DNA from: an uncultured Candidatus Saccharibacteria bacterium
Lineage (GTDB): Bacteria; Patescibacteriota; Minisyncoccia; Phycocordibacterales; Phycocordibacteraceae
Assembly (NCBI GenBank): GCA_964446735.1
Contig: CAYUQB010000001.1
Coordinates: forward strand, 111,270-175,269
Length of the DNA: 64,000 bases
Direction: 5' to 3'
A program made the position numbers and the translations under genes. Position 1 is the first letter of the stretch; every line of letters starts with the position of its first letter. The notes under the pieces are model-generated. The model worked only from the letters and a program-made list of their open reading frames with translations, made no database searches and was not told the DNA's origin. This document shows positions 2,490 to 31,283 of this stretch, in pieces.

Positions 2490-2490
2490 G

Positions 2491-3879: not shown

Positions 3880-3915
3880 GATATGCGGCTCCTGTGCTGT
3901 TGATGCGGTGCGTAG

Positions 3916-5004
3916 TTACACCGTCGTGTACTTCCCTTCTTTGTTCTTCTTGAAGTACCGGGTGTCGTTGAGGTTCACCAGAATCGTATTGTCTTTCACG
4001 TAACGAACCTTCTTCACTGCCGTGATAACTTCGTCGCGGGTAAGCGCCTTTCCTTTCAGAACATCACGAATCACCTCGCGTACCACACCAGGCTGGAAAC
4101 CCCACTCGGCAAGTGCATAGAGTCCACGACCAACGAGGACAAATCGAGAGTCCTTGATCAGTTCGTTGTGCGTAGTTGCAACATGCGCTTTCTTTGAAAA
4201 CGTCTCGGTAATAGCTGCAGCAACATCGGAGAAGTGCATTGGCTCGCCCTTCTTCTTGATGACGAGATACGCGTAGTCGCGGATACCCTTCGTGCGGATG
4301 GCAGGTGCCTGTGCCTTACCCCACTCGGAAAGTGGGTTGCTTGCGATTGATTTGGAGAGCGAAAGCCACCGCTTGAGAATTTCTTCATTGCGGTATGCGG
4401 CATTCACTTCCTTCAATTCCTCAAGGAAGCGATTGATGATCTCTCCTTCCGGAAGCACTTCAGCGTCATCGAGTGTTGCATAGAGACGGGTGAGTGCCGA
4501 GTGGACCATATCGGCGGTGCGATGATCCACATGCCACCTAGCATAGAACTCATCGGTTTCGCGTTCGCGGAAAAAGGCACTTCCGACAACCAGGAGGAAG
4601 CGGATACGATTACGGCTCTTCTCATCGATCGCAAGACCGGAAAGGAGTGCGTCTTCAGGAATCACAGAGCCCTGGGCCTCGATGTATGCACGCAGCTCTT
4701 CAAACGAACCTTCGGAATCATGAAAAGCGCGGGAATGGCGAATGGCCTCAATACCGGAAGCCTCGATCTGACGGACGCGTTCGCGGGTAATACCCCAGCG
4801 CTCACCGATTGCCTCAAGCGTGTCGCGTTCGCTTGCGGAGCCAAGTCCGAATCGGTACACGAGAACCTCGCGCGCACGCTCTGGTACTTCAGCCAGAAGC
4901 TTCTTTACGAGCCCCGCGGTATCGAACGACAGCTTAGCCGGCTGCTTTTTGGAAGCCGTCTGAGAAGCCTTGGATTTGACTACCTTTTTCGCCATATTTC
5001 GCAA
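3916..5004 (-). CDS. sigma-70 region 4 (HTH) domain fusion protein
   Basis: N-terminal segment ...VLVYRFGL...TLEAIGERWGITRERVRQIEASGIEAIRH matches the sigma-70 region 4 signature, followed by about 250 aa of unknown function. Confidence 0.6.
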   Translation of the reverse strand: MRNMAKKVVKSKASQTASKKQPAKLSFDTAGLVKKLLAEVPERAREVLVYRFGLGSASERDTLEAIGERWGITRERVRQIEASGIEAIRHSRAFHDSEGSFEELRAYIEAQGSVIPEDALLSGLAIDEKSRNRIRFLLVVGSAFFRERETDEFYARWHVDHRTADMVHSALTRLYATLDDAEVLPEGEIINRFLEELKEVNAAYRNEEILKRWLSLSKSIASNPLSEWGKAQAPAIRTKGIRDYAYLVIKKKGEPMHFSDVAAAITETFSKKAHVATTHNELIKDSRFVLVGRGLYALAEWGFQPGVVREVIRDVLKGKALTRDEVITAVKKVRYVKDNTILVNLNDTRYFKKNKEGKYTTV

Positions 5005-5058
5005 TGATTAATGTGTTATAGTTATATCAAATAGAGTCAAAACCGTCAAATCTGTGGA

Positions 5059-7902: not shown

Positions 7903-7908
7903 GAGGCT

Positions 7909-8928
7909 CTAGAGCGGCATGGGCTTGCCTGGGAAATCGCGCAGCGGAGGATACTTATCTGGATCAATGGTGCGGTCAAAGCAGACCATACCTGCGTCAT
8001 GCTTCCAGCTACCACCCCCTACAATCCCAAATTCAGAAGGGTATGCGACATCGCGTCCATAGCCTCCCTTTCCTTCCATGTCAGGAGTCGCAGCATTGAA
8101 TGTTGTGCAGAGTTTGAATGAAAGATTTCCCGTTTTCTCATAGGTGTAGGCGGCTTTCGTTTCCGGGTCAGTCGGCACGACATACCCCGAGAGTGCGTCT
8201 GTGAGTTCCTCAAGACTAGTCGGAAGTACCTGCTTCTGCTGGTAGTAATAGACAACCTGAGATTGGATGCCTTGGAGATCACTCGTCTTCTGCGAATCGA
8301 AACGCAGATCACGCATGTGCGAAGGAGTTCCAATGATGAAGAAACCGGCAGCGATCGTGGCGAGCGTAAGTACGCCAACGCCAATACCAATCATGTTCGC
8401 TTTCTTTGCATGTGCGATCCAATAGCCCTTGAGATCCGCTAGGAAGTGGAGGAATACTCCTGCGGCAACCAGTAGCACCACCAGTACCTTGAGACCGAAT
8501 CGGACAGTGATTTCCCCACCCAGGAACGTGTTCGTGAGCGTCACCAAGTCGACGAGAATAGTAACGGTAGCAATGAAAAGCGTGAGTACCAGTGCCCAGC
8601 GGCGTACCCAGATCGTTGCCTTACCGGGTTCTGCAACGATCGAGCCACGAATGAGATGGAGGCAGACGAGCGTCGTGGGCACCAACACAATGAGAGCGGC
8701 CATTGAGAAGCGCACTGCACCACCATACGGATCACCATAATAGGCGAGCGGATCCGGAAACGAATAATTGATGTACTCAAATACGAGTGCGAGGAACGAG
8801 CTGATACTTCCGTAGAGCGCAATGACCGTAAGGAGCCAGAGGAAGAAGTCTTTTGGCGAAGTTTTCGATACAGGAGCAACGGGTGCTGGAGCGGGTGTGG
8901 TGTCCATATGCGCGGAATTATACCACAA
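7909..8928 (-). CDS. hypothetical polytopic membrane protein (339 aa)
   Basis: About 5 predicted TM helices followed by a soluble C-terminal domain. Confidence 0.6.
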   Translation of the reverse strand: MWYNSAHMDTTPAPAPVAPVSKTSPKDFFLWLLTVIALYGSISSFLALVFEYINYSFPDPLAYYGDPYGGAVRFSMAALIVLVPTTLVCLHLIRGSIVAEPGKATIWVRRWALVLTLFIATVTILVDLVTLTNTFLGGEITVRFGLKVLVVLLVAAGVFLHFLADLKGYWIAHAKKANMIGIGVGVLTLATIAAGFFIIGTPSHMRDLRFDSQKTSDLQGIQSQVVYYYQQKQVLPTSLEELTDALSGYVVPTDPETKAAYTYEKTGNLSFKLCTTFNAATPDMEGKGGYGRDVAYPSEFGIVGGGSWKHDAGMVCFDRTIDPDKYPPLRDFPGKPMPL

Positions 8929-8933
8929 AACCT

Positions 8934-9434
8934 CTACATCTTGCGGTATATGGCGGTGTGGCCGATGGTGCCCTCGAACAGCTTCTCGAACCCAGGAAAT
9001 TCAGGAAGTTTATTGCCCGCGTAGTTGAGATAAAAAATACCTCCTGTCTTGAGAACGCGTGCAATCTCATTGATCATCGCGTCCTGATTCTGTTGATACA
9101 CACTGGTATCGAACGTCCCAACGGAGGTGACGTAATCAAATGTCTCATCCCTAAAAGGCAGTTGCTCTACATGTGCTGCAACTTGGTTTGAAAAGTTGTT
9201 CCGAGGTTCTCGATCGACCCCGATCATATCGATTCCCTGTGTGCGTGCGTACTCAATGAGCGCACCTTTCCCTGAACCAATATCAAGAAACTTACCCTCT
9301 GGATTCAGTTCAAGTCCGGCTTGAGTCAGCTGTATTTTGAACAGATTGAGCATATCTTCCGCTTCCAAATCGGTACGGGTGAGATCCTCCCATTTTCTCT
9401 CCGGAGAAGACCAGCTCTTCCGTTCAATACTCAT
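8934..9434 (-). CDS. SAM-dependent methyltransferase (small, 166 aa)
   Basis: Motif I LDIGSGKGALIEYA...IGVD, typical of class I methyltransferases. Confidence 0.7.
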   Translation of the reverse strand: MSIERKSWSSPERKWEDLTRTDLEAEDMLNLFKIQLTQAGLELNPEGKFLDIGSGKGALIEYARTQGIDMIGVDREPRNNFSNQVAAHVEQLPFRDETFDYVTSVGTFDTSVYQQNQDAMINEIARVLKTGGIFYLNYAGNKLPEFPGFEKLFEGTIGHTAIYRKM

Positions 9435-19516: not shown

Positions 19517-19563
19517 GTACACATTGGCCGGGAGCGCTTGCGCTTCCGGTCATGTCGTTTATG

Positions 19564-19634
19564 TGGACCTACGGGGAGTCGAACCCCGACTTCATCCATG
19601 CCATGGATGCGTGATACCGCTTCACTATAGGCCC
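19564..19634 (-). tRNA. tRNA-Ala (anticodon GGC)
   Basis: Manual fold: acceptor GGGCCTA with G3:U70, anticodon loop AUGGCAU, T-loop TTCGACT, A73. Confidence 0.85.
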
Positions 19635-19647
19635 AATATTTTTGATA

Positions 19648-20202
19648 CTACTTCCCCTTCTTCAGCGCTTCAAGATCACGCAGGAGGCGCTGCACATCTT
19701 TGGTGAGTGCTTCGAGAAGCTCCTGTTCATCGTGCACCTTTTTCTCACGACGTTCACGGCGCTCTTTCTTTTCTTTCTCGTCTTTTGCCTCCTTGGCAAC
19801 TTTGGCATCCGCAACCTCCTCCTCGGTCATTTCATCAACATCCTCCTGAATCTCATCGATGTCTTCTGCGATCTCTTCAATGTCCTCCTGAATATCCTCC
19901 ACATCCTCTCCGAGCTCTTCGACATCTTCCTGAATCTCATCGATGTCTTCCTCGACTTCGCGAAGTGACTCAGTGTTCCGGTTCACGGCGATCTGAATGA
20001 AAATGGCCATGTAGATAGCCTCAAGGGAGACAATGGTGGTAAGCACGAGTAGCATGGTTTCCCATGCCACGATCCCAAAGACAGCAAGGAGAAAGGCCCC
20101 CGCAAAAAGTGCGGTGTGCAAAAGCAGTGACGCTATCGATCCAATGGACACGATAGCGGCTTCGATGAATGGGGTTTTCGGGCGTTCCTTCATCACTCGC
20201 AC
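19648..20202 (-). CDS. membrane protein with acidic tandem-repeat tail (DUF1003-like?)
   Basis: Two TM helices, then an E/D-rich heptad-like repeat and a Lys/Glu-rich C-terminal end. Confidence 0.55.
   Translation of the reverse strand: MRVMKERPKTPFIEAAIVSIGSIASLLLHTALFAGAFLLAVFGIVAWETMLLVLTTIVSLEAIYMAIFIQIAVNRNTESLREVEEDIDEIQEDVEELGEDVEDIQEDIEEIAEDIDEIQEDVDEMTEEEVADAKVAKEAKDEKEKKERRERREKKVHDEQELLEALTKDVQRLLRDLEALKKGK
19837..19959. repeat. approx. 21-nt tandem repeat (about 6 units) encoding acidic heptads
   Basis: gatgtcttctgcgatctcttc / aatgtcctcctgaatatcctc / ... units visible in the sequence. Confidence 0.7.
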
Positions 20203-20210
20203 CCTAGCTC

Positions 20211-21362
20211 GTGGATGGGGGTTTGTCTATGAACGAATGCGGTACTACGTGGATAGTCTCGTTTCCATTCATACGAAAACTCGGTACTATCAATCATATG
20301 CCGGGCCCCACCAATCGGACCCTTATCCCTCGCACGCTCGGACCGTATAACCGTAAGCCGGGATCTCCGCTTCGTCGTGCAATTAAAACGGTAACTCCCG
20401 TTGTTGCTTCGACGTTGGTGCTCGCCATCGCACTCTTCTCACTCCCCTCCGTACTTTCCATCGACCTTAAGGCGGATCGTGTTGCCACTCCCAAGCCTCC
20501 GTTCCCGGTGTCGGTCGATCCGTCTCGTAAGCTTATCGTCGAGAATCCGCAGGCCGACGTGCTCATTGAAAACGGCTCCACTAATGCCGCGCTACAGGCG
20601 GCCGCATCAAATGCGGAGTTCTTCTTTGCGTGGCTCGCAACGAAAGTGGCCTCACTTCCCGCCTATCGTCAGCTTGCCGGTGTGGACCTCGCCTACGTTT
20701 CTATTCAACCGGGATACCGCCAAGAAGAAGTGGCACAAGCCTTTGGAACCGCGCTCGGATGGAGCACCAAGGAGCGCCAGGCGTTCTTAACTCTCGTAAA
20801 GTCTTCTCCTCCGACGCTTTCAGAAGGTGAGTTCGTTCCCGGTATCTATGAAGTACACGGCGCGATGAAGGCAGCTGAAGTGCAGCATCTGTTGAACGAT
20901 CGGTTCACGACCGAGATCATGAATCGTTACAGCACCACCACTGCCGAGCAGGTGCCGCTCGATGATGCACTCACCATTGCATCCCTGATTGAACGCGAGA
21001 CCGGAGGCACCGATGATATGCGGCTCATTTCCGGCATTATCTGGAATCGCCTGTTCGTTGGTATGAATCTACAAATCGATGCCACGCTCCAATATGCAAA
21101 GGCACAGAACACTAAGAGCTGGTGGCCACCGGTACGACCTGCAGATAAATACATCAAGTCGGCCTACAACACGTACGCGCATCCTGGACTTCCGCCAACT
21201 CCTATCGCAAATCCATCAGTCGCAGCAGTTATCGCCGCACTGAATCCAAAACCAACCGACTGTATCTTCTACTTCCACGATAGGTACGGAAATTTCCACT
21301 GTGCACCGACGTACGAAGAACACGTACGCCTTCTTAAGAAATACTACGGGCAAGGGAAGTGA
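20211..21362 (+). CDS. MltG/YceG family protein (second paralog)
   Basis: C-terminal ...NLQIDATLQYA...YNTYAHPGLPPTPIANP... parallels the 1479-2489 paralog. Confidence 0.75.
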   Translation: MDGGLSMNECGTTWIVSFPFIRKLGTINHMPGPTNRTLIPRTLGPYNRKPGSPLRRAIKTVTPVVASTLVLAIALFSLPSVLSIDLKADRVATPKPPFPVSVDPSRKLIVENPQADVLIENGSTNAALQAAASNAEFFFAWLATKVASLPAYRQLAGVDLAYVSIQPGYRQEEVAQAFGTALGWSTKERQAFLTLVKSSPPTLSEGEFVPGIYEVHGAMKAAEVQHLLNDRFTTEIMNRYSTTTAEQVPLDDALTIASLIERETGGTDDMRLISGIIWNRLFVGMNLQIDATLQYAKAQNTKSWWPPVRPADKYIKSAYNTYAHPGLPPTPIANPSVAAVIAALNPKPTDCIFYFHDRYGNFHCAPTYEEHVRLLKKYYGQGK

Positions 21363-21492
21363 GGGCCGTCCCGTAGGACGACCCTCTTCGTTGGCTCACC
21401 GCCAACGTCCCCAACGGAAGGGAGAAACCACTGGCTTTAGTATCGTCCCGCACTCTACATCACGCACGTACACGCGGTGGATAAATGCAAAA

Positions 21493-21526
21493 GACCCCGC
21501 CCTTGCGAGCGGGGTCCCTTTTTGTT
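21493..21526. terminator. Rho-independent terminator (GACCCCGC-loop-GCGGGGTC + T-tract)
   Basis: Perfect 8-bp GC stem followed by CCTTTTTGTTGTT. Confidence 0.6.
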
Positions 21527-21542
21527 GTTGGGTGGGTGTTGG

Positions 21543-21953
21543 TCAGGCGGCGAGCGCGAGGTCGGCGGTGTTCAAGAAGCGTCGCAGTTCTCCGCGAGGC
21601 TGCAGCTTGATCTCGTAGCCCTCACTCGTGAACTCCGGAAGCACGTCGCGCTCGCTCTCGGTGAGAACGACACGATAGACGGTGATCAGTTGGATCACCG
21701 TCTCGAGCTCACGCTCCGCCACTCGCGTCAGCGAGAGGCGATTCGGATCGATGCACAACCCGAGTTCATCACGCGCCTTGCGGCACGCCGCTTCTTCGAC
21801 TGTTTCAGCCGTGCGAACACGCCCGCCCGGGAACACCCAGTTACGGAAGCCCTTCGGCGGCCGTACGAGTGCGAGGTGTCCCTTCCACGCGGCGTGGAGG
21901 ACAACGATCGGACGGTGATTCTTCGCCACCCCAACTCCAATGAACTTCCCCAT
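21543..21953 (-). CDS. Nudix hydrolase (137 aa)
   Basis: Nudix box GGRVRTAETVEEAACRKARDELGL. Start refined to MGKFIG. The track ORF extends over the tRNA. Confidence 0.7.
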   Translation of the reverse strand: MGKFIGVGVAKNHRPIVVLHAAWKGHLALVRPPKGFRNWVFPGGRVRTAETVEEAACRKARDELGLCIDPNRLSLTRVAERELETVIQLITVYRVVLTESERDVLPEFTSEGYEIKLQPRGELRRFLNTADLALAA

Positions 21954-22011
21954 CGAAATTAACTCCCTCTCCGATTGGTACCCGCGTACCATATCATGTC
22001 TTATCAAAATG

Positions 22012-22084
22012 TGGACCCGAGGGAATTCGAATCCCTGACCTCTGCAATGCGAATGCAGCGCTCTACCAACTGAGCTACGGGCCC
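22012..22084 (-). tRNA. tRNA-Ala (anticodon CGC)
   Basis: Acceptor GGGCCCG with G3:U70, anticodon loop UUCGCAU, T-loop GTTCGAATT. Confidence 0.85.
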
Positions 22085-22174
22085 GTATGGCATGACGAAT
22101 ATAGCATGTGGGCAGAGAGCGAAAAGATGACGCCGCCCAGCAGTGTGGGCGGCGTCTTCCTTGGGATCGGCTCG

Positions 22175-22786
22175 CTACGCTTCGAGCACTCCTTCGGGCG
22201 GCTTGAGCTTCCCGAGATCGATCAGCATGGCGGTGGGGTCGAAGTCTGGGCGACACTCATCGAGCCAGATCACCACCAGGTCGTCGCCGAAGACGAATTC
22301 CTTACGCCAGTCGAGCGCGAAGCTTGCCTCAAGGGTGGTGAGCGTCGCTCCGTGATAGTCGTCGTGGGCAACGAACGATGCCGGGAGTCGGCAGTATCGC
22401 TCAGAGCCGAACGACATCTCCGAGAACTCGTGGCCTTCCAGAAGGCCGACGGCGAAGTGCTCCCTCCGGTACGCCGCAGGGGCAAAGTAGCTGACGCCAG
22501 GCAGAATCTCCTCGTAGGCGACGAGCACCAATTGGCCCTGATGGGATTTCAAGAACTGCTCCGCCTTCCGTGCCAGGTCGCACACGTAGTCAGCGGGGTT
22601 GAACGGTCCGGCGACTGCAAAATCGCGGATCGGACAACCGGTGGTTTCGCCCGCGATGATCCGCCGGCGAAGTTCGGTGTATTCCTCCTTCGCGCGGCCC
22701 GCTGCACGCAGCGCAGCCGAATGTGCGCGGGTGCTACGCTCCCGCAGCACGAGCGCCTGCTGTAGCTGCTCTTCGATCGATCGCAT
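22175..22786 (-). CDS. hypothetical protein (203 aa) in a GC-rich islet between two tRNAs
   Basis: Long ORF. A mirror ORF on the + strand makes the strand choice uncertain. Confidence 0.35.
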   Translation of the reverse strand: MRSIEEQLQQALVLRERSTRAHSAALRAAGRAKEEYTELRRRIIAGETTGCPIRDFAVAGPFNPADYVCDLARKAEQFLKSHQGQLVLVAYEEILPGVSYFAPAAYRREHFAVGLLEGHEFSEMSFGSERYCRLPASFVAHDDYHGATLTTLEASFALDWRKEFVFGDDLVVIWLDECRPDFDPTAMLIDLGKLKPPEGVLEA

Positions 22787-22842
22787 GGTGCAACCTCCCT
22801 TACCTATCGAAAGGGTATCAGAAATGCTTAGAAAAAGAATTG

Positions 22843-22913
22843 TCGGGCTGCCGGGAATCGAACCCGGTCTACATCCACCCCATGGACGCGTACTACCGGT
22901 ATACTACAGCCCG
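22843..22913 (-). tRNA. tRNA-Pro (anticodon GGG)
   Basis: C1:G72 acceptor typical of bacterial tRNA-Pro, anticodon loop AUGGGGU. Confidence 0.8.
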
Positions 22914-22937
22914 CTCGTGTTCGAACGTTCTACTACC

Positions 22938-23345
22938 CTACATTCTGAACACTTTCGTCGCAACGACGTACGTAAGTCCTGCGGTAAGGGCAGTCATAAG
23001 TGTTCCCCACGCCATGTCGACCAGTGCTCCAAGCAGCGGCCAATTGGGAAGTGTTGCGAGGTTCGTGAGGTCGTAGGTCATGTAGACGGTGAAACCAAGG
23101 ACAGCACCGCCCGCAATTGCTTTCGTGAATGATCGTTCCTTGAGCGCGCCGTCGAGCACAAAGTAGATGAGCGCAAGTGCGTAGAGGATATAGAAGAGTG
23201 CCGCTGCCCACAGAAGTGGATCAGGACGGAAGAACGCTCCGAAGGTGGACTGGTAGAACCCAGCTGCGATAACACCAAGCCAACTCATGTCGAGTGCTAT
23301 AGAAATAGGAAGCGCGAGGCAGAAGAGCTTGAGATAGGTGTTCAT
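22938..23345 (-). CDS. small integral membrane protein (135 aa, DUF2177-like)
   Basis: Four hydrophobic segments. Confidence 0.55.
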   Translation of the reverse strand: MNTYLKLFCLALPISIALDMSWLGVIAAGFYQSTFGAFFRPDPLLWAAALFYILYALALIYFVLDGALKERSFTKAIAGGAVLGFTVYMTYDLTNLATLPNWPLLGALVDMAWGTLMTALTAGLTYVVATKVFRM

Positions 23346-23941
23346 ACGGTAATAGTACCCTGGCCGAGTAGGAAGTTTTGGAGCTCTGTGCGCTTCTCGG
23401 GATTGTACTTGGCTTCAATGAGAAGCGGCCGAAGGGCGGTGTTCTGGAAATCAGGTCTGCTTGAGAGTTCGATCAGCTCATCGAGTGTGACGACGCGTGT
23501 ACTGACACGCTCGCCTGCGTCAGTAGAGGGAGCTCCAACATATCTGCAGTTACGAGCGACGAAGAAGTAGACCGCAAAGTCGACTCTGGTTTCGGGCTGA
23601 AAGCCGAACCAGTACGTAAGCTCATCGCTCTCATACCCTGTTTCTTCTTTGAGTTCTCGTCGGGCAGTTGTGAGAGGATCTTCCCCTTCCTCGATATGTC
23701 CTCCGGCGAACGTGGTGAGTGGGACACGTCCTGGTTGTTCGTCGTATCCGATGACTATTCTTCCATCAGGAAGCACCGGAATAGCGACTGCAGCATCCTG
23801 AGTGCGCTTTGCCTTCTCAAACGTGGCTGTGCTTCCATCAAAGAGTTCCTGTTCCCATTGGTATATATGAAAGTCTTTGCCCTTGAATACGCAGGTCGCA
23901 TGGGGAGGGATTGGTTGGCGACTTACGGGCCGTTCGATCAT
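23342..23941 (-). CDS. Nudix hydrolase (ADP-ribose pyrophosphatase-like, 199 aa)
   Basis: Nudix box GGHIEEGEDPLTTARRELKEETGY. Confidence 0.75.
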   Translation of the reverse strand: MIERPVSRQPIPPHATCVFKGKDFHIYQWEQELFDGSTATFEKAKRTQDAAVAIPVLPDGRIVIGYDEQPGRVPLTTFAGGHIEEGEDPLTTARRELKEETGYESDELTYWFGFQPETRVDFAVYFFVARNCRYVGAPSTDAGERVSTRVVTLDELIELSSRPDFQNTALRPLLIEAKYNPEKRTELQNFLLGQGTITV

Positions 23942-23990
23942 AGCGCCAGAGTAGCATTGAGCTCGCTTGTTTGGTATCGTCCGAAGATTA

Positions 23991-24064
23991 GGACGATTAG
24001 CTCAGTTGGTTAGAGCGTTCGCTTCACACGCGAAAGGTCACAGGTCCGAATCCTGTATCGTCCA
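23991..24064 (+). tRNA. tRNA-Val (anticodon CAC), unusual T-loop UCCGAAU
   Basis: Acceptor GGACGAT/ATCGTCC, anticodon loop UUCACAC, T-loop with C at position 55. Confidence 0.75.
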
Positions 24065-24065
24065 C

Positions 24066-24136
24066 CGGGCCGTGGTATAGTGGTATTACGTACGCTTCGG
24101 GTGCGTATAACCCGAGTTCGATTCTCGGCGGCCCGA
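24066..24136 (+). tRNA. tRNA-Pro (anticodon CGG)
   Basis: C1:G72 acceptor CGGGCCG/CGGCCCG, anticodon loop UUCGGGU, T-loop TTCGATT. Starts 1 nt after tRNA-Val. Confidence 0.8.
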
Positions 24137-24138
24137 CT

Positions 24139-24176
24139 AAATAACAAAGCCCCTTTCGGGGCCTTTGTTATTTCGC
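24139..24176. terminator. bidirectional terminator (AAATAACAAAGCCCC tttc GGGGCCTTTGTTATTT)
   Basis: GC stem flanked by complementary A-tract and T-tract. Confidence 0.6.
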
Positions 24177-24530
24177 CTCTACCACTGTAGTGAATCCCCC
24201 GTACGCAAAGCTTCGCATCTCCACCGGCATCTTCTGGTCCTTATACTTCTCATCGAAGTACGCCATGACCTTCTTATTCACTTGATCACGATGCGCTCGT
24301 GACTTGAAGACGATGTATGAGAAGAATACTACTTCTGTCGGCTTTGCTCCGATTAGTTTCGGGAAGGTAAGTTTCGAGTGCTTTGGTTTGAGATCTTCTC
24401 CGACGCATTCTTTATAGTCCAGCGCACCAAACTTCATCCAGATATCGCGTCCTTCGGTTGCCATCTTCTTATACACATCGAGCTTCCGCTTCGGAACGGT
24501 GAGCAAAAACCCATCAACGTACGTTGCCAT
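24168..24530 (-). CDS. DUF1428-like small protein
   Basis: Start refined to MATYVDGF... Confidence 0.5.
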   Translation of the reverse strand: MATYVDGFLLTVPKRKLDVYKKMATEGRDIWMKFGALDYKECVGEDLKPKHSKLTFPKLIGAKPTEVVFFSYIVFKSRAHRDQVNKKVMAYFDEKYKDQKMPVEMRSFAYGGFTTVVEAK

Positions 24531-24532
24531 GA

Positions 24533-24916
24533 TTATTCCTGTATTAGTGCTAAGAAGTTCCCGGCAGGATCCTTGAACCACGCTATGGCCGCGGGCCCTA
24601 GCTGAACTCCGTCGTTACGACAGATACCCTTCTCATCTGTTTTCATCATTGGTTCGTCGTACTGTTCGAACATAACGCCCTTGGCGGTAAGCTCATCGAC
24701 TGCAGAGTCGATGTCTTCTACTTCGAAGTTCAGGACGGTGAACGTTGCTGGAGCGTGATTCTGCTTCGGATAGATGAACACTCGTGTGTTAGGTAGCGTG
24801 AGCTCAAGTCCTTCGGGCATCTCTGCTGTTTGGGTGCCGAGTGTTTCTCCATAAAAGGCTTTTGCGGTCGGTATGTCATCGACAGAAAAGCTGGCGAATG
24901 AATTTTGGATCTTCAT
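24533..24916 (-). CDS. glyoxalase/VOC-family protein
   Basis: 127 aa with a paired beta-alpha-beta-beta-beta pattern typical of the VOC fold. Confidence 0.65.
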   Translation of the reverse strand: MKIQNSFASFSVDDIPTAKAFYGETLGTQTAEMPEGLELTLPNTRVFIYPKQNHAPATFTVLNFEVEDIDSAVDELTAKGVMFEQYDEPMMKTDEKGICRNDGVQLGPAAIAWFKDPAGNFLALIQE

Positions 24917-24971
24917 GCAAATAGTATAGCGCTTGTATATGAGCGGTGTATGAGCGTGCTACGGTGATGCA

Positions 24972-25082
24972 ATGAAATGGTTGAAGCGTCTTGGCATCGT
25001 AGGTTTCCTTTTCTTTACGGTGAAGGGATTGCTTTGGCTTGTGGTGCCTGCGGCGATTGTGTGGTTTGGGGTGAACAATTAG
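24972..25082 (+). CDS. putative 36-aa hydrophobic peptide MKWLKRLGIVGFLFFTVKGLLWLVVPAAIVWFGVNN (absent from ORF track)
   Basis: ATG at 24972 with a weak GGTGA upstream. Single TM helix. Confidence 0.2.
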   Translation: MKWLKRLGIVGFLFFTVKGLLWLVVPAAIVWFGVNN

Positions 25083-25273
25083 GTGGACCTCGACGGAGTA
25101 AGTTCGAACCAGTCAGCACTCGCACCACAGACACTCGACGTACAGCTCAAGCTTTTAGCCAGATTAGTCATCGATGTGATCAAACGTGATCGTGCGAAAA
25201 AGGGGATGGTTGAAACTAAGTCCCCAACGTCCTCGAAGCCCCTCATGTCCCTGGAGGTAACAACACAGACGAA

Positions 25274-25837
25274 CTAGTCTAACTCCGGCAGACCGAAACG
25301 AGAGAGGTAATTCGCAAATCGTTGAGAGAGGTTTTCGCGGAAAAGTTCGTTTACCGTTGCTAGATAAGAGTCTGGCAAATGAGCCTGGAGAATATCAACT
25401 GGGATCGTATAGAAATGTTTGAAGTCAATGACGAAGGCTGGGACGGCGAATTCGGTTCCGGATTTTAGAAAGTGGTACCGCGGAAATTCCGTGTTTCCTT
25501 CAAGTTTTTCCCGCTCCCTGCTACTCGAAAAGGAGCGCTTGCGGGTTCCCGATATATGCTCACCCTTTACGAAAGTCTCGTATACATACGCTGGGCAGAC
25601 TAGAACAGTCGGGATGATTTTGTCAGTTATCTCAGGCTCCGCTGTCCGTTCCTCGTGATCGTGTTGTAGATCGCAATCCTGACTCATCACAACGGCGTAG
25701 TTTATTTGGGCCTCGGATTCCAATTCCGTGACCTCTCGGTATAGAGTGGAAAAATGTATGTCTATCAGGATGTCTCCTTGACAAATTCTTTCCCCCTCTT
25801 TTATGGCGTATCTAGCTGCTACTCGGCTCGGTAACAT
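25274..25837 (-). CDS. hypothetical protein (187 aa), third gene of the candidate operon
   Basis: Start overlaps the 65-aa ORF. No recognisable family. Confidence 0.5.
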   Translation of the reverse strand: MLPSRVAARYAIKEGERICQGDILIDIHFSTLYREVTELESEAQINYAVVMSQDCDLQHDHEERTAEPEITDKIIPTVLVCPAYVYETFVKGEHISGTRKRSFSSSREREKLEGNTEFPRYHFLKSGTEFAVPAFVIDFKHFYTIPVDILQAHLPDSYLATVNELFRENLSQRFANYLSRFGLPELD

Positions 25838-26009
25838 ACTTAGTAGTTTTGAAGCTGGTTCTTCGAGTCAAATGTTCAACCTCTACGGAAAATGGATCCA
25901 CCTGCGTGGTGGGAACTTCAATATTCATTGCCGATGCGGTCATGATTACATCGTTTGAATTTTCTAGATTGCTATCGGTACTTGGGTTCATTTTGCTTTG
26001 TTTAGCCAT
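25812..26009 (-). CDS. small ORF (65 aa) overlapping both neighbours
   Basis: Overlaps the 257-aa gene stop by 22 nt and the 187-aa gene start by 26 nt, a translational-coupling geometry. Confidence 0.2.
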   Translation of the reverse strand: MAKQSKMNPSTDSNLENSNDVIMTASAMNIEVPTTQVDPFSVEVEHLTRRTSFKTTKYVTEPSSS

Positions 26010-26761
26010 TCTTTGAAGAGTTTTGTGATGCTCATATCAAACAGTCTATCTACATACTTGTTGTATCTTTCAATCACCTTGGAAATCGTTCCTTCTTCGG
26101 TTCCAGTTGGGAACTGGGAGTAGCAATCATAGTCAAGTATGAATTCCTTCCGGAGAACCTCCGCAGGGAAATCATTGTTCAAAAGGCCAAAATTGAAGGT
26201 GATATCAGCATCATCGTACTTCAATACTAACTGTCCCATTGCGCGGGCATTTTTTCCCTTAGAGGCTTTTATGAATTTCAAAGAACTTATAAGGTTTGAT
26301 GAAATATACCGGTCCCAGGTGAAATTTTCCTTGATCTCGTTAAGATTAATTTCGTTCCGATACCTAAGTCCGATACGATTGATCGTCTTGATCCCTGCCG
26401 CTTTTAGAAATGGCTCGAATATACACGACACGTCGTTGAGAAGGTCTTTTTTGTTTATGTACTTCTTGTACTCCATCACTATGTTGTCGGTAGATATTTC
26501 TAGTTTCTTGCTTTTTGTTGCGTTATGAAATATCCACACGGTCTTATGTAGGTCGCTGGTTTGAATCTTTTTGGGATTCATATTTACAACCATCGCATTC
26601 ACCATCGTGGTCGACTCCAGGTAGGGAAACGTTCCTTCAATACTCTTGTGAAATTCTTTAAGAAAATTTAGCTCAACTTTATCGAAGTCGAGTCGAAGGA
26701 AGACGCTACTCAAGTAATTACGCTTGTATGTTTTCGGCGTAGCCGGCAGTGATGTAGCCAT
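25988..26761 (-). CDS. TIGR04255-like sporadically distributed hypothetical protein (257 aa), AT-rich
   Basis: Motif ...INRIGLRYRNEIN... matches my recollection of the R-I/L-G-L-R-Y-I-N signature of that family. About 36% GC. Confidence 0.45.
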   Translation of the reverse strand: MATSLPATPKTYKRNYLSSVFLRLDFDKVELNFLKEFHKSIEGTFPYLESTTMVNAMVVNMNPKKIQTSDLHKTVWIFHNATKSKKLEISTDNIVMEYKKYINKKDLLNDVSCIFEPFLKAAGIKTINRIGLRYRNEINLNEIKENFTWDRYISSNLISSLKFIKASKGKNARAMGQLVLKYDDADITFNFGLLNNDFPAEVLRKEFILDYDCYSQFPTGTEEGTISKVIERYNKYVDRLFDMSITKLFKEWLNKAK

Positions 26762-26813
26762 TGAGATGTAACTCTATAAGTATACGCAGTATCAGATCCT
26801 TTTCCACCGTGTG

Positions 26814-26838
26814 GGAGGTTCGAATCCCCTTCGGTCGA
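26814..26838 (+). other. tRNA-like 3' fragment (T-arm GGAGGTTCGAATCCCCT + acceptor-like TCGGTCGA)
   Basis: Canonical GGTTCGAATCC T-loop with no upstream D-arm or anticodon arm. One A-C mismatch in the T-stem. Confidence 0.3.
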
Positions 26839-27193
26839 ATGGCTGATGCAGCTCCTAAAAATATCCTTTGGCTGCTGGGCGAAAACTCAAACTATGCGCC
26901 CGGCGCATAGTGTGGACCACAACAGAACGATTTTCGAATCAAGATCGTGCCGGCGGCAGCAGTTGTTCACAAGTCGAAGTCAGACAAATCGTGGGCAGCA
27001 CTTCACGATGAACTATTCGCCGACGCGCAGTGGGAAGCACCTCCACCTGGTGCCGGTGACTATCTGCTGAATAAGTATGTGCTGAACTAGACGCCGAAGC
27101 GGCGCAAGGAAGCTCGTGTGGCTTTCAGGAACTGCGGGTTTGCCATGATACGGCTGGCGATGACGGTACTACTCGCTGAGAAGCCCCCTGCTA

Positions 27194-27760
27194 TTAGTAA
27201 GGATTTTGACGCAGTCTCTTGAGGGAAGAGATTATGTAAAGTCCAAGGAACAGTAGTATCACTATCATGACTGCCAGAAATATTTTCTTGATCAGTGCAT
27301 ACAAATTCTCATGGTACTTTTGCTCATACGGAAATGGCGATACCGGTTCAATACTGAACATTTTACTGCTGAGGTCGGAAGTGAATACCCACTCGGGCTC
27401 GTCAGTTACGAACACAACCTTCAGTTCCTCGTTCGGATAGATGGAGGCGAACTTTACAACAGTTGTCTCTTCACCGGGATAAACTATTTCCGAGCCTCCT
27501 TTATCTCCTTGCACTTGTATATCTTTCCGTTCGATCTTCTTGTCTATCTTGAAAACGAGATCGCCAGTCTGTCTGCTGCTGTTGTAAATGTGAACCCTAT
27601 TGTAGGTCTTATCCAGGAACGAGATGTGATCGGTGAGATAGAGCAATCTTGGTTGGAGATTGAAGAAGGACACGATACTCGGCTGAAATATGACAAACAT
27701 AGTCCCGATTGCCGTCGTTACGAGCGCATTCACGACAATATTTGCGAGACTCGTCTTCAT
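27194..27760 (-). CDS. hypothetical membrane-anchored protein (N- and C-terminal TM)
   Basis: Start likely MKTSLANIV. AT-rich. Confidence 0.5.
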   Translation of the reverse strand: MKTSLANIVVNALVTTAIGTMFVIFQPSIVSFFNLQPRLLYLTDHISFLDKTYNRVHIYNSSRQTGDLVFKIDKKIERKDIQVQGDKGGSEIVYPGEETTVVKFASIYPNEELKVVFVTDEPEWVFTSDLSSKMFSIEPVSPFPYEQKYHENLYALIKKIFLAVMIVILLFLGLYIISSLKRLRQNPY

Positions 27761-28169
27761 GCATTTTTGTGTTGTGGACCGATTTGGGGGCACGTTCGAA
27801 CTGGACGTAAATCGGACGATGGGCTGACGGAAATACTGTTTAGAATCGACGAAAGTTCGAACCCTACTGAACAGTCATGCCCAACCAGGCAATGGTCGAA
27901 AGAGGAGTTACGGCAGATTATGCTCCGCGTCAGAAAAGATAATCCTGACTGGAAGCCAACCTGGGAAGCAGCTCCGCCACCCCGCAAGGAAAACCCGGGA
28001 TGGGAGGCCATTCGACGGATTAATCGAGAGCGAATAGCGGACAGGGCGAAGAAAGAGTTTGAGGAGATGTCCTCGAAGTCCACTGATGAGGATGAGTGTG
28101 AGGCAGCCGGGTTCTCCGATGTGGGCGGTGCTGACTAGCCCACTTCAGATGGGCAAAGGCTTGCCAGTA

Positions 28170-29351
28170 CTAGAGTTGTGGAGTGGAAGTTGCCTTTCGT
28201 GTCCTTATATACTCAACTTGCTCTTTTCCTACTTGCATTGCCTGGGAAGTTGTCCCTGAAACCGTAGCCACAAAGATGAATTGGCTGGATTCATCTAAGA
28301 GGTAGATCCTCGAATTAGCGTCAAGGGGTATTTCTGTTTTAAGTTTCCACTCTATTTCACGAGGTTGTCCACCTCCGATTGCAAAAGGAATTCTCGGGAA
28401 TATTACCCACCCGAATAGGATGATTGAACCAAGTATTGGTACAACACCTTGCCTAAATATCATTTCGTAGGAATTGACGTCAGTAAAATCAAACAACTTC
28501 AGATTTACTTCTGCTTTTGGGAAAGTCCAGTTTAGAAAAAAATACATGGTTAGAACGAAACCGAACAACCATGAGAACACGAGTGCCGAGGTGAGCGAAG
28601 TATTTGAAAGAGAATTGAAGTCAAACAAATTTACTCGAAGCTTGTAGTACGCATATACCGCCACCGCTAAGTAGCCAGAAATGATAATAAAATCTACCAA
28701 AAAAAGAGACAAATACATCCATGTTGGCTTCTTTGGTTTCGGGGCCACATCTTCCTCGGTGTTTGTGTTCTGCTCAGTGGTGGCGGGAGATACTGCATCT
28801 TTTTTCCTTGGAATCCAACTGTAGATGATACAGACCGCGATAATGCACAGATACAGCAAAAAAATGTACGAAAATATGTATATCGTATTCTTGATCAAAT
28901 AATCAACCGATCCAGACACAATATTTAATGAGGAGATGAAGTCGCCCAGGAAATCATAATTCGGTATTACTGCTTTGAAATATAGATGATCAGCAGATAT
29001 TGGAGCTTGATACCGTCCTAGATTGAAAAAGGTCGTCACTGCAAAGCTTAGACCAAAAATAGAAGATATTATATATATAAGTGTTAATCCGCGTTTTCTG
29101 AAATGATTTAGGTCAAAGAAGTCTTTGAAGGGAAGCGCTTTGAATGCGATCCAGGATACGACCAGACCTATCGCAATCGAACACATTGAGAATATGCCCG
29201 CTATCACATACCTGGCGTTTAGAATATCGAAACTAGCTATTCCGAATCTTCCGAGGTAGGCATTTATCGTGAGGAATCCGAATAGATACAGAATCGATCC
29301 TCCTGCCACCAGAAGCTGTAGGATGTTCTTGAGAGTCTCTAATTTAGGCAT
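28170..29351 (-). CDS. hypothetical polytopic membrane protein (393 aa), AT-rich
   Basis: At least 10 hydrophobic segments and a central Thr/Glu/Pro-rich loop. Confidence 0.6.
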   Translation of the reverse strand: MPKLETLKNILQLLVAGGSILYLFGFLTINAYLGRFGIASFDILNARYVIAGIFSMCSIAIGLVVSWIAFKALPFKDFFDLNHFRKRGLTLIYIISSIFGLSFAVTTFFNLGRYQAPISADHLYFKAVIPNYDFLGDFISSLNIVSGSVDYLIKNTIYIFSYIFLLYLCIIAVCIIYSWIPRKKDAVSPATTEQNTNTEEDVAPKPKKPTWMYLSLFLVDFIIISGYLAVAVYAYYKLRVNLFDFNSLSNTSLTSALVFSWLFGFVLTMYFFLNWTFPKAEVNLKLFDFTDVNSYEMIFRQGVVPILGSIILFGWVIFPRIPFAIGGGQPREIEWKLKTEIPLDANSRIYLLDESSQFIFVATVSGTTSQAMQVGKEQVEYIRTRKATSTPQL

Positions 29352-29438
29352 TCTCTTGAGGGTTGTTCATCTGCTGACGTAAGAGCCGGGACCGTGGCAT
29401 GCTCGCCGTGACAAAAACTGTACTTATGTTATAATTTG

Positions 29439-29511
29439 TGGACCGTACAGGATTCGAACCTGCGACCCTCTCATTGCAAATGAGATGCTCTACCAACTGA
29501 GCTAACGGCCC
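29439..29511 (-). tRNA. tRNA-Ala (anticodon TGC)
   Basis: Acceptor GGGCCGT with G3:U70, anticodon loop UUUGCAA, T-loop TTCGAAT, A73. Confidence 0.85.
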
Positions 29512-29521
29512 AAGGGTTATG

Positions 29522-29869
29522 TTATAGCACGTTTCCCTCGCCAAGCATATCTATTTTCGCCGCCATAATGAAGTCATTTTCCGAGAGGCCTTTGATGCTG
29601 TGAGTCGTTAATTTCACCTCCACTTTCCCCCACGAAAGCTTGATATCCGGGTGGTGCCATTCCTCCTCTGCTATCTTCCCCACCGCGTTTACAAACATAA
29701 GCGCACTTTTGAAGTCCGGAAAACGAAACACCCGATGAATGACGGTGGATTCGTCATTCAGGCTCCAGAGCGGTGCATGTTCATGGAAATCCTTTGCCTG
29801 CTCTGGGGTGAGTGCAGGGAAATCCGGACTCTCACACGGAACACACCTCTTCTTTGCAAGCTCGTCCAT
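29522..29869 (-). CDS. pterin-4a-carbinolamine dehydratase (PCD/DCoH) family
   Basis: ...EEEWHHPDIKLSWGKVEVKLTTHSIKGLSENDFIMAAKID... matches the PCD signature. Confidence 0.7.
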   Translation of the reverse strand: MDELAKKRCVPCESPDFPALTPEQAKDFHEHAPLWSLNDESTVIHRVFRFPDFKSALMFVNAVGKIAEEEWHHPDIKLSWGKVEVKLTTHSIKGLSENDFIMAAKIDMLGEGNVL

Positions 29870-29871
29870 AC

Positions 29872-30891
29872 CTAAATGCGCGCTGGCTCATGCCCGAGTG
29901 AAAGCTCAACCAGATGCGAGAGGAAATCTGGAAACTTTACTCCCACTGCAGCAAGAGACTTTGGTAAGAGCGACTCACTCGTAAGTCCCGGGAGTGTATT
30001 AGTCTCAAGGAAGTAGATACCACGCGGAGAAACAATGAAATCGCTGCGGGAATAGTGGCGAAGTCCTAGTGCTTCGTGCATGACTTTCGCCTGTCGCATC
30101 AGCTCACTACTCTCAGAACGACTGAACCGCCCCGGAACAATCTCGGTAGTCGTACCGTCGTACTTAGCCTGTCGATCAAAGAAGGATGCTGTGGGAGGCG
30201 AGACAATCTCAATGGGAGGGAGCGTGTAAAGCGATTCACCACGTATGTGCTCAACCACCCCAACCGTCGCTTCTTTGCCGCGGATCAACTCCTCAACCAG
30301 AACCCCTGAAGAGCCTGACAGAATAGCTTGTATCGCTTCCTGTACCGGCAGATACCCACCAACGATGGATACCCCAACCGAGGAACCAAGCGATACCGGC
30401 TTCACCACTACTGGCTGATGGAAGGTGCGAATAATATGGTGCACCGCAGCATCAACATCACTTCCCGGCTCTACCAAATGATACTTAGGAGTCATCAGTC
30501 CCGCGTGAAGTGCTCGTTCCTTGGTCAGCACCTTATGCATCGCAATGGACGACGTAAGTGAATCAGCGCCCGTGTACGGGACCCCGTATCGTTCAAGGAG
30601 GCGCTGTACCGTCCCATCTTCTCCATATTCACCATGAAGCCCGATAACAACCGTGTCGACGGTAGGGAGCACCCGTTCCGGAGCAGTCGGAACGCCACGC
30701 TCATGCCAGATGCCCTGGCGATCTATATAAATATCTCGAACCGTATACCGTTCCTCCGGAAGATGCGTGAGAATCGCATGCCCCGTCTGGAGCGATACAT
30801 CATGCTCGCTCGAAGGTCCACCCCGCAGGACTCCGACAACGGTGCCACGCATGTAGGTGAGTATATCAGGAACTATCGCGGCCACTTCCAA
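29872..30891 (-). CDS. ddl: D-alanine--D-alanine ligase
   Basis: ATP-grasp motifs and N-terminal VGVLRGGPSSEHDVS. The true start may be the internal MRGTVVGV at about 30852. Confidence 0.85.
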   Translation of the reverse strand: MEVAAIVPDILTYMRGTVVGVLRGGPSSEHDVSLQTGHAILTHLPEERYTVRDIYIDRQGIWHERGVPTAPERVLPTVDTVVIGLHGEYGEDGTVQRLLERYGVPYTGADSLTSSIAMHKVLTKERALHAGLMTPKYHLVEPGSDVDAAVHHIIRTFHQPVVVKPVSLGSSVGVSIVGGYLPVQEAIQAILSGSSGVLVEELIRGKEATVGVVEHIRGESLYTLPPIEIVSPPTASFFDRQAKYDGTTTEIVPGRFSRSESSELMRQAKVMHEALGLRHYSRSDFIVSPRGIYFLETNTLPGLTSESLLPKSLAAVGVKFPDFLSHLVELSLGHEPARI

Positions 30892-30914
30892 GCGGAAGTG
30901 GCCGGCGAACAGAT

Positions 30915-31283
30915 TTAGGGTTGGGGAAGAAGCGCCCGAAGCTGGGACTCGCTCGTCTTGAGCTGCCCGAGCGTGACCCCGAGCCGAGCGAACCCGACCA
31001 GGAGCGACGTGAACGCTTGCTCACCCGCACGTCCGGAAAAGAGCTCCGGCTGCGAGGTGACGAGCGCAACGAACCGATCGCGCAGGCCTTCTGCCTGCAG
31101 CACGTTCGTGTCCGATTCTGGACATGTACAGTGCTCTGCTGGTTCGTATCCCGGCATCGGTGCTCCACACCGAGAGATCAGGCGTTCGATCACTCCGGAT
31201 CGTCCCCCTGCCGGAACCTGTACTTCCGGCAGACCCCAGAACAATTGGCTTTTCATATCAAAACCCCCTCTACTACTCAACAA
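30915..31283 (-). CDS. hypothetical protein (122 aa)
   Basis: A mirror + strand ORF exists. The minus-strand translation is more protein-like. Confidence 0.3.
   Translation of the reverse strand: MLSSRGGFDMKSQLFWGLPEVQVPAGGRSGVIERLISRCGAPMPGYEPAEHCTCPESDTNVLQAEGLRDRFVALVTSQPELFSGRAGEQAFTSLLVGFARLGVTLGQLKTSESQLRALLPQP

Follow-up and report, generated by a model that had tools for sequence, protein, structure and literature searches.

A mobile three-gene cassette linking a TIGR04255-family protein to a small overlapping gene and a protein with a predicted MazF-type fold

In the classic geometry of type II toxin-antitoxin systems, a small open reading frame (ORF) lies directly upstream of, and overlaps, a larger gene with a toxin fold. 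Tripartite systems, such as omega-epsilon-zeta, paaR-paaA-parE, HipBST and the toxin-antitoxin-chaperone systems with a SecB-like component, consist of three co-transcribed genes in which the extra component, often encoded first, regulates or stabilises the pair, and they include an antitoxin-like protein without a DNA-binding domain of its own. In ToxIN and AbiQ, the toxin comprises approximately 170-190 amino acids (aa), more than MazF, with a fold related to that of Kid/MazF, and the ToxIN antitoxin is a tandem-repeat RNA located upstream of the toxin. Here, a cassette of three overlapping genes (A, B and C) is described from positions 25274-26761 of a 64,000-nucleotide (nt) stretch of DNA (the window) from an uncultured Candidatus Saccharibacteria bacterium (assembly GCA_964446735.1, contig CAYUQB010000001.1, positions 111,270 to 175,269 of the forward strand). 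The trio, which encodes a TIGR04255-family protein (A), a small protein (B) and a candidate effector with a predicted MazF/PemK-type toxin fold plus insertions (C), is a real, self-contained, conserved cassette that is horizontally mobile, and it may act as a toxin-antitoxin-like or abortive-infection-type module.

A comparison with the described systems reveals partial similarity to each of them. The B-C pair has the type II geometry, with a 26-nt overlap in the window and an equivalent arrangement in 68 loci. As in MazEF/PemIK (Kid-Kis), a predicted toxin fold in C is combined with a small upstream overlapping gene in a mobile, sporadic cassette; however, C has no PF02452 homology, is approximately 70 residues longer, contains insertions and has its own invariant set (QGD, CD, RYH and DFK), B has neither an AbrB nor a ribbon-helix-helix (RHH) DNA-binding domain, and an obligatory first gene, A, is added. 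The tripartite systems are the closest architectures to A-B-C in that an extra first component heads a three-gene set, but A has no helix-turn-helix (HTH), RHH or SecB-like signature and is predicted to have a fold like that of the TATA-binding protein (TBP), and no homologue of A, B or C is present among their components. The size and predicted MazF-related fold of C, together with carriage on mobile elements, are shared with ToxIN/AbiQ, whereas the spacer between A and C has no repeats or special RNA fold and encodes B, which is under selection. MazF and ToxN are the closest toxin folds to C, and ToxN is not among the top 50 structural matches of C. GajC of type II Gabija (Liu-DS1) contains an insertion-interrupted MazF-like domain, is a presumed nuclease effector with an anti-phage role and is partnered by the UvrD-type helicase GajB (PMC13069673). 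Compared by description only, C would be similar to GajC in its predicted insertion-bearing MazF-like fold, whereas no helicase accompanies the trio. An insertion-bearing MazF-like domain as a defence effector has a precedent in GajC (PMC13069673).

At the locus, gene A occupies positions 25988-26761 (257 aa), gene B positions 25812-26009 (65 aa as the maximal ORF) and gene C positions 25274-25837 (187 aa), all on the minus strand, and the maximal ORFs overlap by 22 nt (A/B) and 26 nt (B/C), exactly as the initial annotation had reported. A second in-frame ATG of B at 25991 gives a product of 59 aa and an ATGA overlap with the stop codon of A. This start is more likely than that of the 65-aa ORF, and the same length of 59 aa was given to B independently by gene calling on a Logan metagenome contig that encodes an A product identical to that of the window. 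The 26-nt B/C overlap is secure, since the N-terminus of C (M-L-P-S-R-V...) aligns with the M-x-x-S-K-I start kept in its relatives. The NCBI protein for C (P0001) comprises 149 aa and is 99% identical to the C-terminal 80% of the window ORF. Because the family alignment places the true start at ATG 25837, this public call is truncated, with its QGD motif hidden; by our reading, it would begin at an internal TTG at residue 39.

A sigma-70-like promoter candidate (TGGAAA, a 16-nt spacer and TATACT; 9/12 in a consensus scan) is located on the minus strand at 26779-26806, 18-45 nt 5' of the A start. It is no more than a weak pattern resemblance, and the scan finds fewer promoter-like sites in the region than expected from shuffles. 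Further upstream, a terminator-like hairpin at 26891-26911 (minus strand; a 9-bp stem followed by a T-rich tail) would end the preceding minus-strand unit. With this hairpin and the weak promoter-like site before A, the trio looks like its own transcription unit. The guanine-plus-cytosine (GC) content is 39.8% in A, 43.3% in B and 47.5% in C, compared with 52.9% in the window; the figure of approximately 36% first given for A was slightly too low.

The conservation of the trio was evaluated in a scan of one genome per species (185,579 species), in which relatives of C are present in 187 (approximately 0.1%). Locus counts refer to the best 80 of these 187 loci, and architecture counts refer to the 73 with at least 1 kb of upstream sequence. 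C is immediately preceded by a same-strand homologue of A in 72 of the 73 informative loci, and an ORF of 50-80 aa fills the 140-220-nt gap between A and C in 68 of the 72, with overlaps that are typically 1-17 nt. The sole exception, L050 (binned as Spirochaetales), keeps a fragment of A and a B-like tail and may represent an alternative genetic code, mis-binning or a decayed copy. A and C are fragmented under translation table 11 in L050 and in two Gracilibacteria loci (L024 and L028), and for the latter two we attribute the fragmentation to an alternative genetic code. Independent metagenome contigs carry the trio with gene sizes of 261-59-192 aa and 263-64-186 aa. The recurrence of A-B-C in other genomes is far beyond chance; the overlapping unit is thus genuine and conserved across domains, and the three genes travel together.

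The best 80 loci come from hosts of approximately 20 phyla, with 31 in archaea and 49 in bacteria. The archaeal hosts are Methanoperedens, Methanothrix, Methanosarcinales/ANME (anaerobic methanotrophic archaea), Methanobrevibacter, Thermoplasmatales, Nanoarchaeota and Woesearchaeota. The bacterial hosts include many Patescibacteria as well as Gamma-, Alpha- and Betaproteobacteria, Planctomycetota, Bacteroidota, Spirochaetota, Acidobacteriota, Chloroflexota, Actinomycetota, Elusimicrobiota and Omnitrophota. The cultured carriers are Methylocystis iwaonis SD4, on plasmid NZ_CP143318.1 (29547-31075), and Piscinibacter koreensis ID0723. An all-against-all BLAST of 387 neighbour ORFs yielded no cluster in more than five loci and hence no conserved fourth gene. 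Since the neighbours are also unrelated, the three genes are not conserved core genes in syntenic positions. The accessory status proposed in the initial annotation is borne out by the lack of shared neighbours, the sporadic distribution and the copies on a plasmid and on phage contigs. The mean pairwise identity is highest for C (0.43), followed by A (0.32) and B (0.25).

Several observations indicate that B is a real small gene and provide one of the kinds of support for its ORF that the initial annotation had named, namely conservation. The gap between A and C is fully open in one coding-strand frame at 58 of 71 loci; the opposite strand has such a frame at 13 of 71, and shuffled gaps have one in 5% of cases. 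When close pairs are compared whose synonymous divergence is not saturated, the ratio of nonsynonymous to synonymous substitution rates (dN/dS) of B outside both overlaps is 0.16-0.34, which is similar to the values of A and C. The N-terminal two-thirds of B vary among loci and consist largely of polar residues (median 67%), and the last 25-30 residues show a recurring hairpin-like pattern, such as KDFxIxTxKYxKTxxKVxxxEYEIKD. Additionally, B was annotated independently by the Prokaryotic Genome Annotation Pipeline (PGAP; on the plasmid) and by metagenome gene callers. Sequence similarity within B is weak: a leave-window-out hidden Markov model (HMM) ranks B first of the 758 window ORFs, with an E value of 0.13. 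No match to B was found in NCBIfam, Pfam, PADLOC or PHROGs, apart from one spurious PADLOC match (Orf5, E 0.014). A type III ToxI-like RNA antitoxin in the A-C spacer was considered and rejected, as there are no tandem repeats at 25000-27200, the RNA fold of the spacer is unremarkable (z = -0.96) and the ORF is protein-coding and under selection.

Relatives of C number 212 in a word-indexed search, and an exhaustive profile search of 1.84 billion representatives delimits a family of at least 2,232, 1,071 and 331 clusters (50% identity) at E values of ≤1e-3, ≤1e-10 and ≤1e-30, respectively. Nearly all members are 175-220 aa in length. The longer ones apparently represent start-codon over-extensions, internal insertions or uninformative C-terminal tails, and domain fusions therefore gave no functional clue. 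No match to C was found in Pfam, NCBIfam, PADLOC or PHROGs. Residues 9-155 of C align with phrog_4575, a phage family of undefined role, at an E value of 0.017, which is not significant, although most of the protein is spanned.

The AlphaFold2 model of C, which was obtained from a 33-sequence alignment, has a mean predicted local distance difference test score (pLDDT) of 88.5 and a predicted template modelling score (pTM) of 0.84. In a Foldseek comparison with 350,542 PDB chains, all of the 50 best matches are MazF toxins, including those of Mycobacterium tuberculosis (MazF-mt1 and mt3), S. aureus, B. subtilis, B. cereus and B. anthracis (MoxT), with E values of 1.1e-3 to 8e-2, probabilities of 0.97-1.00 and template modelling (TM) scores of 0.57-0.71 when normalised to MazF. 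The initial annotation had assigned no recognisable domain to the 187-aa product, which remains correct at the sequence level but not for the predicted fold. The order of elements in the model is beta-beta-alpha-beta-[insert]-beta-beta-beta-alpha-beta-alpha, which by our reading would parallel MazF with approximately 70 extra residues. The invariant residues are Q20-G21-D22, Q53/C55/D56, G92/H94, R120, D138-F139-K140, R167-E168, F174, R180 and P184, and divergent members keep QG[DE], CDL..D, R[YL][HY] and DF. In the model, C55 lies at the N-terminus of the helix formed by residues 54-66. As judged from the prediction, C is a protein with a MazF-type fold and an active-site signature of its own rather than a member of the MazF family.

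The assignment of A to TIGR04255, which had been suggested from a sequence motif, is confirmed by an HMM search. A matches the NCBIfam model with 77.6 bits (E 1.3e-21) against a curated cut-off of 30 bits, and residues 12-251 cover profile positions 2-249 of 252, which makes A a bona fide full-length member of a family without an assigned function. The motif itself, RIGLRYRN, is located at residues 129-136, and its G131 and R133 are invariant across the family. The family is described as sporadic in bacteria and archaea, with the model short name sporadTIGR04255, and the sporadic bacterial and archaeal spread of the A homologues alongside C matches it. No Pfam, PADLOC or PHROG match to A was found, Pfam returned noise only for 49 A members, and a PDB sequence search with the A profile had no match. 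No paper on TIGR04255 or its InterPro synonyms was found in the searchable literature, and PADLOC-DB v2.0.0 contains no match to A or C at E≤1. Together with the absence of PADLOC, Pfam and PHROG models for B and C, these results agree with the earlier proposal that the system was previously undescribed.

The AlphaFold2 model of A from 49 sequences (pLDDT 93.0, pTM 0.87) has the predicted order S1-H1-S2-S3-S4-S5-H2 followed by a second similar unit, that is, a tandem beta-alpha-beta(3-4)-alpha arrangement with a TBP-like topology. An internal duplication is rejected at the sequence level, since hhalign detects no similarity between the two halves (probability 1%). Foldseek matches in the PDB are of low quality and comprise TBP (probability 0.57-0.93) and S-adenosylmethionine decarboxylase (AdoMetDC)/prozyme structures (probability 0.57-0.97 overall, TM ≤0.38, root-mean-square deviation (rmsd) >10 Å), and matches in BFVD include giant-virus TBPs (E 5e-5 to 1e-3). 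A shows no HTH, RHH or SecB-like signature, and its fold matches are TBP/AdoMetDC-like instead. The conserved polar residues of A (N15, R129, R133, Y134, N136, N195, D210, D212, E242 and R250) suggest a defined pocket. Structurally, A is matched best by A0A515MGR4, an unnamed viral protein of 202 aa (BFVD; E 4e-8, TM 0.59 when normalised to the target), which clearly surpasses every PDB match and could be a virus-encoded TIGR04255-like protein.

A also occurs with other downstream partners. Nine look-ups were seeded with A, eight of them on the most divergent A-family matches, and A is the first gene in all of them. The order A-x-C is found again in L086, L092 and L093 (E 2e-9 to 4e-29 with the C profile). 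In L085 (3944-6344), the genes after A encode a 223-aa HTH protein of the Xre type and an uncharacterised 291-aa protein, a set that looks like an antitoxin-toxin pair. In L091 (1962-4554), A is followed by uncharacterised proteins of 296 and 306 aa, and in L094 (917-2183) by a protein of 178 aa that is acidic. When these partners of divergent A genes were compared with PADLOC, there were only weak HTH-region matches (E ≥0.007), all in one protein. These arrangements suggest that TIGR04255 is a shared first component with interchangeable downstream partners, and the occurrence of A at the head of other sets fits a role as an add-on to swappable two-gene pairs.

The cassette is present on mobile elements. 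In PLSDB, one plasmid has the annotated trio (M. iwaonis SD4 unnamed4; 250, 70 and 192 aa, with 8-nt overlaps), where RefSeq names A a 'TIGR04255 family protein' and B and C each a 'hypothetical protein'. In the region 27528-31075 of this plasmid (L087), the cassette comes directly after genes for a recombinase and an 'abortive infection family protein' and two tiny fragments with a WGR domain, which may indicate a small defence or accessory cluster. The plasmid is 31.5 kb in length and is typed as non-mobilizable in PLSDB, yet a MobQ family relaxase is annotated on it. Among 2.9 million viral contigs in IMG/VR, seven have A directly upstream of C, and six of the seven have a B-sized ORF between them. 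One of them is a tailed-phage contig (L096; IMGVR_UViG_3300045988_149591, 1682-9175), in which the cassette lies 1.4 kb upstream of the genes for the terminase large subunit, portal and minor head proteins, a site that is typical for an accessory phage gene. Two further viral contigs carry an integrase (L097) and a tail protein (L098). No relative of C was found among 50,697 GenBank phage records. The absence of a fourth gene, the occurrence in approximately 20 phyla, the GC content below that of the surroundings in the window and the plasmid and phage copies indicate that the cassette moves as a unit.

The 136 immediate neighbours that were compared with Pfam and PADLOC are mostly housekeeping genes, and only a few are integrase, transposase, restriction-modification or ATPase genes. 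An enrichment in defence islands was therefore rejected, since the matches are scattered, and the link to restriction or abortive-infection neighbourhoods on which the initial annotation had drawn proves weak, as few of the neighbours are related to defence or to the mobilome.

A-B-C is best read as a mobile three-part toxin-antitoxin-like or abortive-infection-type module, a reading that in our judgement is as likely right as not. This reading follows from the combination of a coupled mobile cassette, a toxin-fold protein C that is the most conserved of the three, a fast-evolving B upstream and an A that heads other sets. The order of conservation (C > A > B) and the dN/dS of B are what a conserved toxin and a real but fast-evolving protein partner would show, and the predicted MazF-type fold of C also fits. 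In such a module, C would be a growth-arresting effector that uses a MazF/CcdB-type fold with its own invariant Cys/Asp/His/Arg/Lys constellation; its target would most likely be RNA, although the chemistry need not equal that of MazF. B, which is small, fast-evolving and mostly polar, would be translated by coupling from A into C and would serve as a labile neutralising partner, binding through its conserved C-terminal hairpin-like motif. A would be an accessory first-gene regulator, sensor or stabiliser that controls the timing of C release, and a phage-defence outcome is conceivable.

A number of results weigh against this interpretation. Pfam PF02452 (PemK_toxin) is absent in C and 32 relatives even at E≤10, a PDB profile search with C returned no MazF, and hhalign of C against MazF/Kid gave probabilities of 0.3% and 0.03%, with four MazF/Kid sequences as the references and one MazF from the cassette loci added in a second comparison. 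Since all of these are negative, C is rejected as a member of the MazF/PemK family and only a fold similarity is claimed, for which the Foldseek E value is only approximately 1e-3 and the TM score normalised to C approximately 0.45. C has no evident counterparts of the catalytic Arg and Thr/Ser that MazF carries before strand beta2 and after strand beta3, respectively: when the alignment is read against the predicted secondary structure, the segment before beta2 is variable and the one after beta3 is P-A-Y. Moreover, C is acidic in the window (pI 5.2) and approximately neutral family-wide, which is unusual for an RNA-binding toxin. Both the conserved residues of C and its neutral-to-acidic charge speak against a simple RNase mechanism of the MazF type. 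In B, no domain for DNA binding or of a known antitoxin type can be recognised, and its terminal Y-[V/E] is forced by the overlapping ATG of C; the rest of the C-terminal motif lies outside the B/C overlap. A has no known regulator, chaperone or sensor domain in Pfam or NCBIfam and is not consistently basic (family median net charge -4). Finally, the association with defence islands is weak, as described above.

Four other explanations were weighed. The roles within the cassette may be swapped, in which case A would neutralise C or be enzymatic, either as a type VII-like antitoxin that modifies C or as a ligand-binding switch, with B as an adaptor or coupling peptide; or A would be the effector and C a binding or regulatory subunit. 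The dense conserved polar residues of A, with G131 included, suggest a pocket or active site and are consistent with this arrangement, as are the other downstream partners of A-family genes in L085, L091 and L094 and the enzymes AdoMetDC, S-adenosylmethionine (SAM) lyase and McsB among the weak fold matches of A. However, these matches are of low quality (TM ≤0.38, rmsd >10 Å), C is the most conserved of the three proteins and the sole one with a toxin-type fold, and the selection and motif of B outside the overlaps exceed the needs of a coupling spacer, which makes a swap unlikely. An accessory operon without a role in conflict, such as one for RNA or protein processing or for stress response, that happens to transfer horizontally would explain why the immediate neighbours are mostly ordinary housekeeping genes and why the cassette is enriched in small-genome Patescibacteria and methanogen/ANME archaea. 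C without the MazF catalytic residues, and with an invariant Cys at a helix N-terminus plus His and Asp, could also fit a non-toxic enzyme. We consider such an operon rather unlikely in view of the occurrence in approximately 0.1% of species of both domains with no conserved context, the plasmid copy beside an abortive-infection gene, the copies on phage genomes, and the tight three-gene translational coupling combined with a toxin-type fold.

A function that serves the mobile element itself, such as superinfection exclusion or anti-defence, with the chromosomal copies as element remnants, is quite improbable and largely overlaps the toxin-antitoxin or abortive-infection reading, as modules of that kind often ride mobile elements. 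It would agree with the seven IMG/VR contigs, one with the cassette beside terminase, portal and head genes and another with an integrase on the contig, with the integrase, transposase or recombinase genes that adjoin some copies, with the unnamed viral protein as the best structural match of A (E 4e-8) and with the transfer RNA (tRNA) T-arm-like relic beside the window copy (see below). Against it stand the seven of 2.9 million viral contigs versus 187 of 185,579 species genomes, the lack of any copy among the 50,697 GenBank phage records and the fact that most chromosomal copies have no mobile-element genes in the two nearest neighbours. It is very improbable indeed that B is not a gene and that its open frame is incidental to an A-C spacer with a regulatory role or an RNA product, such as a type III-like RNA antitoxin. 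The weak similarity of B (HMM E 0.13; mean pairwise identity 0.25) and the constraint of its last residues by the start codon of C would be expected in that case, but an open frame is more frequent on the coding strand (58 of 71 loci) than on the opposite strand (13 of 71) or in shuffles (5%), the dN/dS is 0.16-0.34 in the non-overlapping part, tandem repeats and an unusual RNA fold (z = -0.96) are absent, and PGAP and metagenome callers annotate B independently.

The obligate linkage of TIGR04255 to B and C in this subfamily, and its linkage to other partners in divergent branches, was found in no searched source. It provides a first functional context for TIGR04255, and a large unnamed family of C proteins is delimited that combines a MazF toxin fold with a different conserved residue set. 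A compact cassette is thereby recognised that is common to Patescibacteria, Proteobacteria, methanogenic/ANME archaea, a plasmid and tailed phages. Should A-B-C indeed be a toxin-antitoxin or abortive-infection module, it would be a new tripartite architecture headed by a gene for something other than a classical repressor or a chaperone; otherwise, its mobile function would be even less expected. A broader proposal, which we regard as doubtful, is that TIGR04255 is the common head, as a sensor or regulator, of a new class of bacterial and archaeal conflict systems with interchangeable downstream effector pairs. B and C would then be the commonest pair, and C would be a MazF-fold enzyme with a new Cys/Asp catalytic centre and hence a chemistry or target different from those of MazF.

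The tRNA genes that flank the cassette lie where they had been placed: ARAGORN locates tRNA-Val(cac) at 23991-24066, tRNA-Pro(cgg) at 24066-24137 and tRNA-Ala(tgc) at 29438-29511. The bracketing is thus true in the window but not general, as 19 of 60 loci have a tRNA within 6 kb and 3 have one within approximately 300 nt. The proximity of tRNAs across loci is not clearly above the gene-density expectation, and the bracketing in the window is probably incidental or a matter of local integration history. A 26-nt tRNA T-arm-like relic on the plus strand at 26811-26836 (GTGGGAGGTTCGAATCCCCTTCGGTC) adjoins the cassette; it contains the 11-mer GGTTCGAATCC, which occurs elsewhere only in tRNA-Ala(tgc), with 0.13 occurrences expected by chance. 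The tRNA-like 3' fragment noted upstream of A therefore exists as a T-arm-like stretch, but it is not recognised as a tRNA by ARAGORN or by Rfam at E≤10. The relic may be a remnant of an old integration site outside the functional module. An integration at the present tRNAs was considered and rejected, since neither flanking tRNA end is directly repeated in the relic and no tRNA is called there.

Some features in the surroundings were observed in addition. Six tRNA genes (Ala-ggc, Ala-cgc, Pro-ggg, Val-cac, Pro-cgg and Ala-tgc) are located within 10 kb (19563-29511), which is unusually dense, and the Val and Pro(cgg) tRNAs abut, sharing base 24066 according to ARAGORN. After Pro(cgg), a near-perfect 15-nt inverted repeat at 24139-24173 forms a bidirectional terminator-like hairpin. 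A second stretch of low GC content (37-45%), at 27194-29351, separates the cassette from tRNA-Ala(tgc) and contains minus-strand ORFs of 199 and 393 aa, which are read as membrane proteins and have no family match. A 275-aa plus-strand ORF at 27311-28138, antisense to the 199-aa ORF, was chosen by a metagenome gene caller. The genes of this stretch never accompany the trio in other loci. At 19815-19955, three direct repeats with 42-nt spacing and 67-77% identity to the reference copy lie inside a minus-strand ORF (19648-20202, 184 aa), which suggests a repetitive protein segment.

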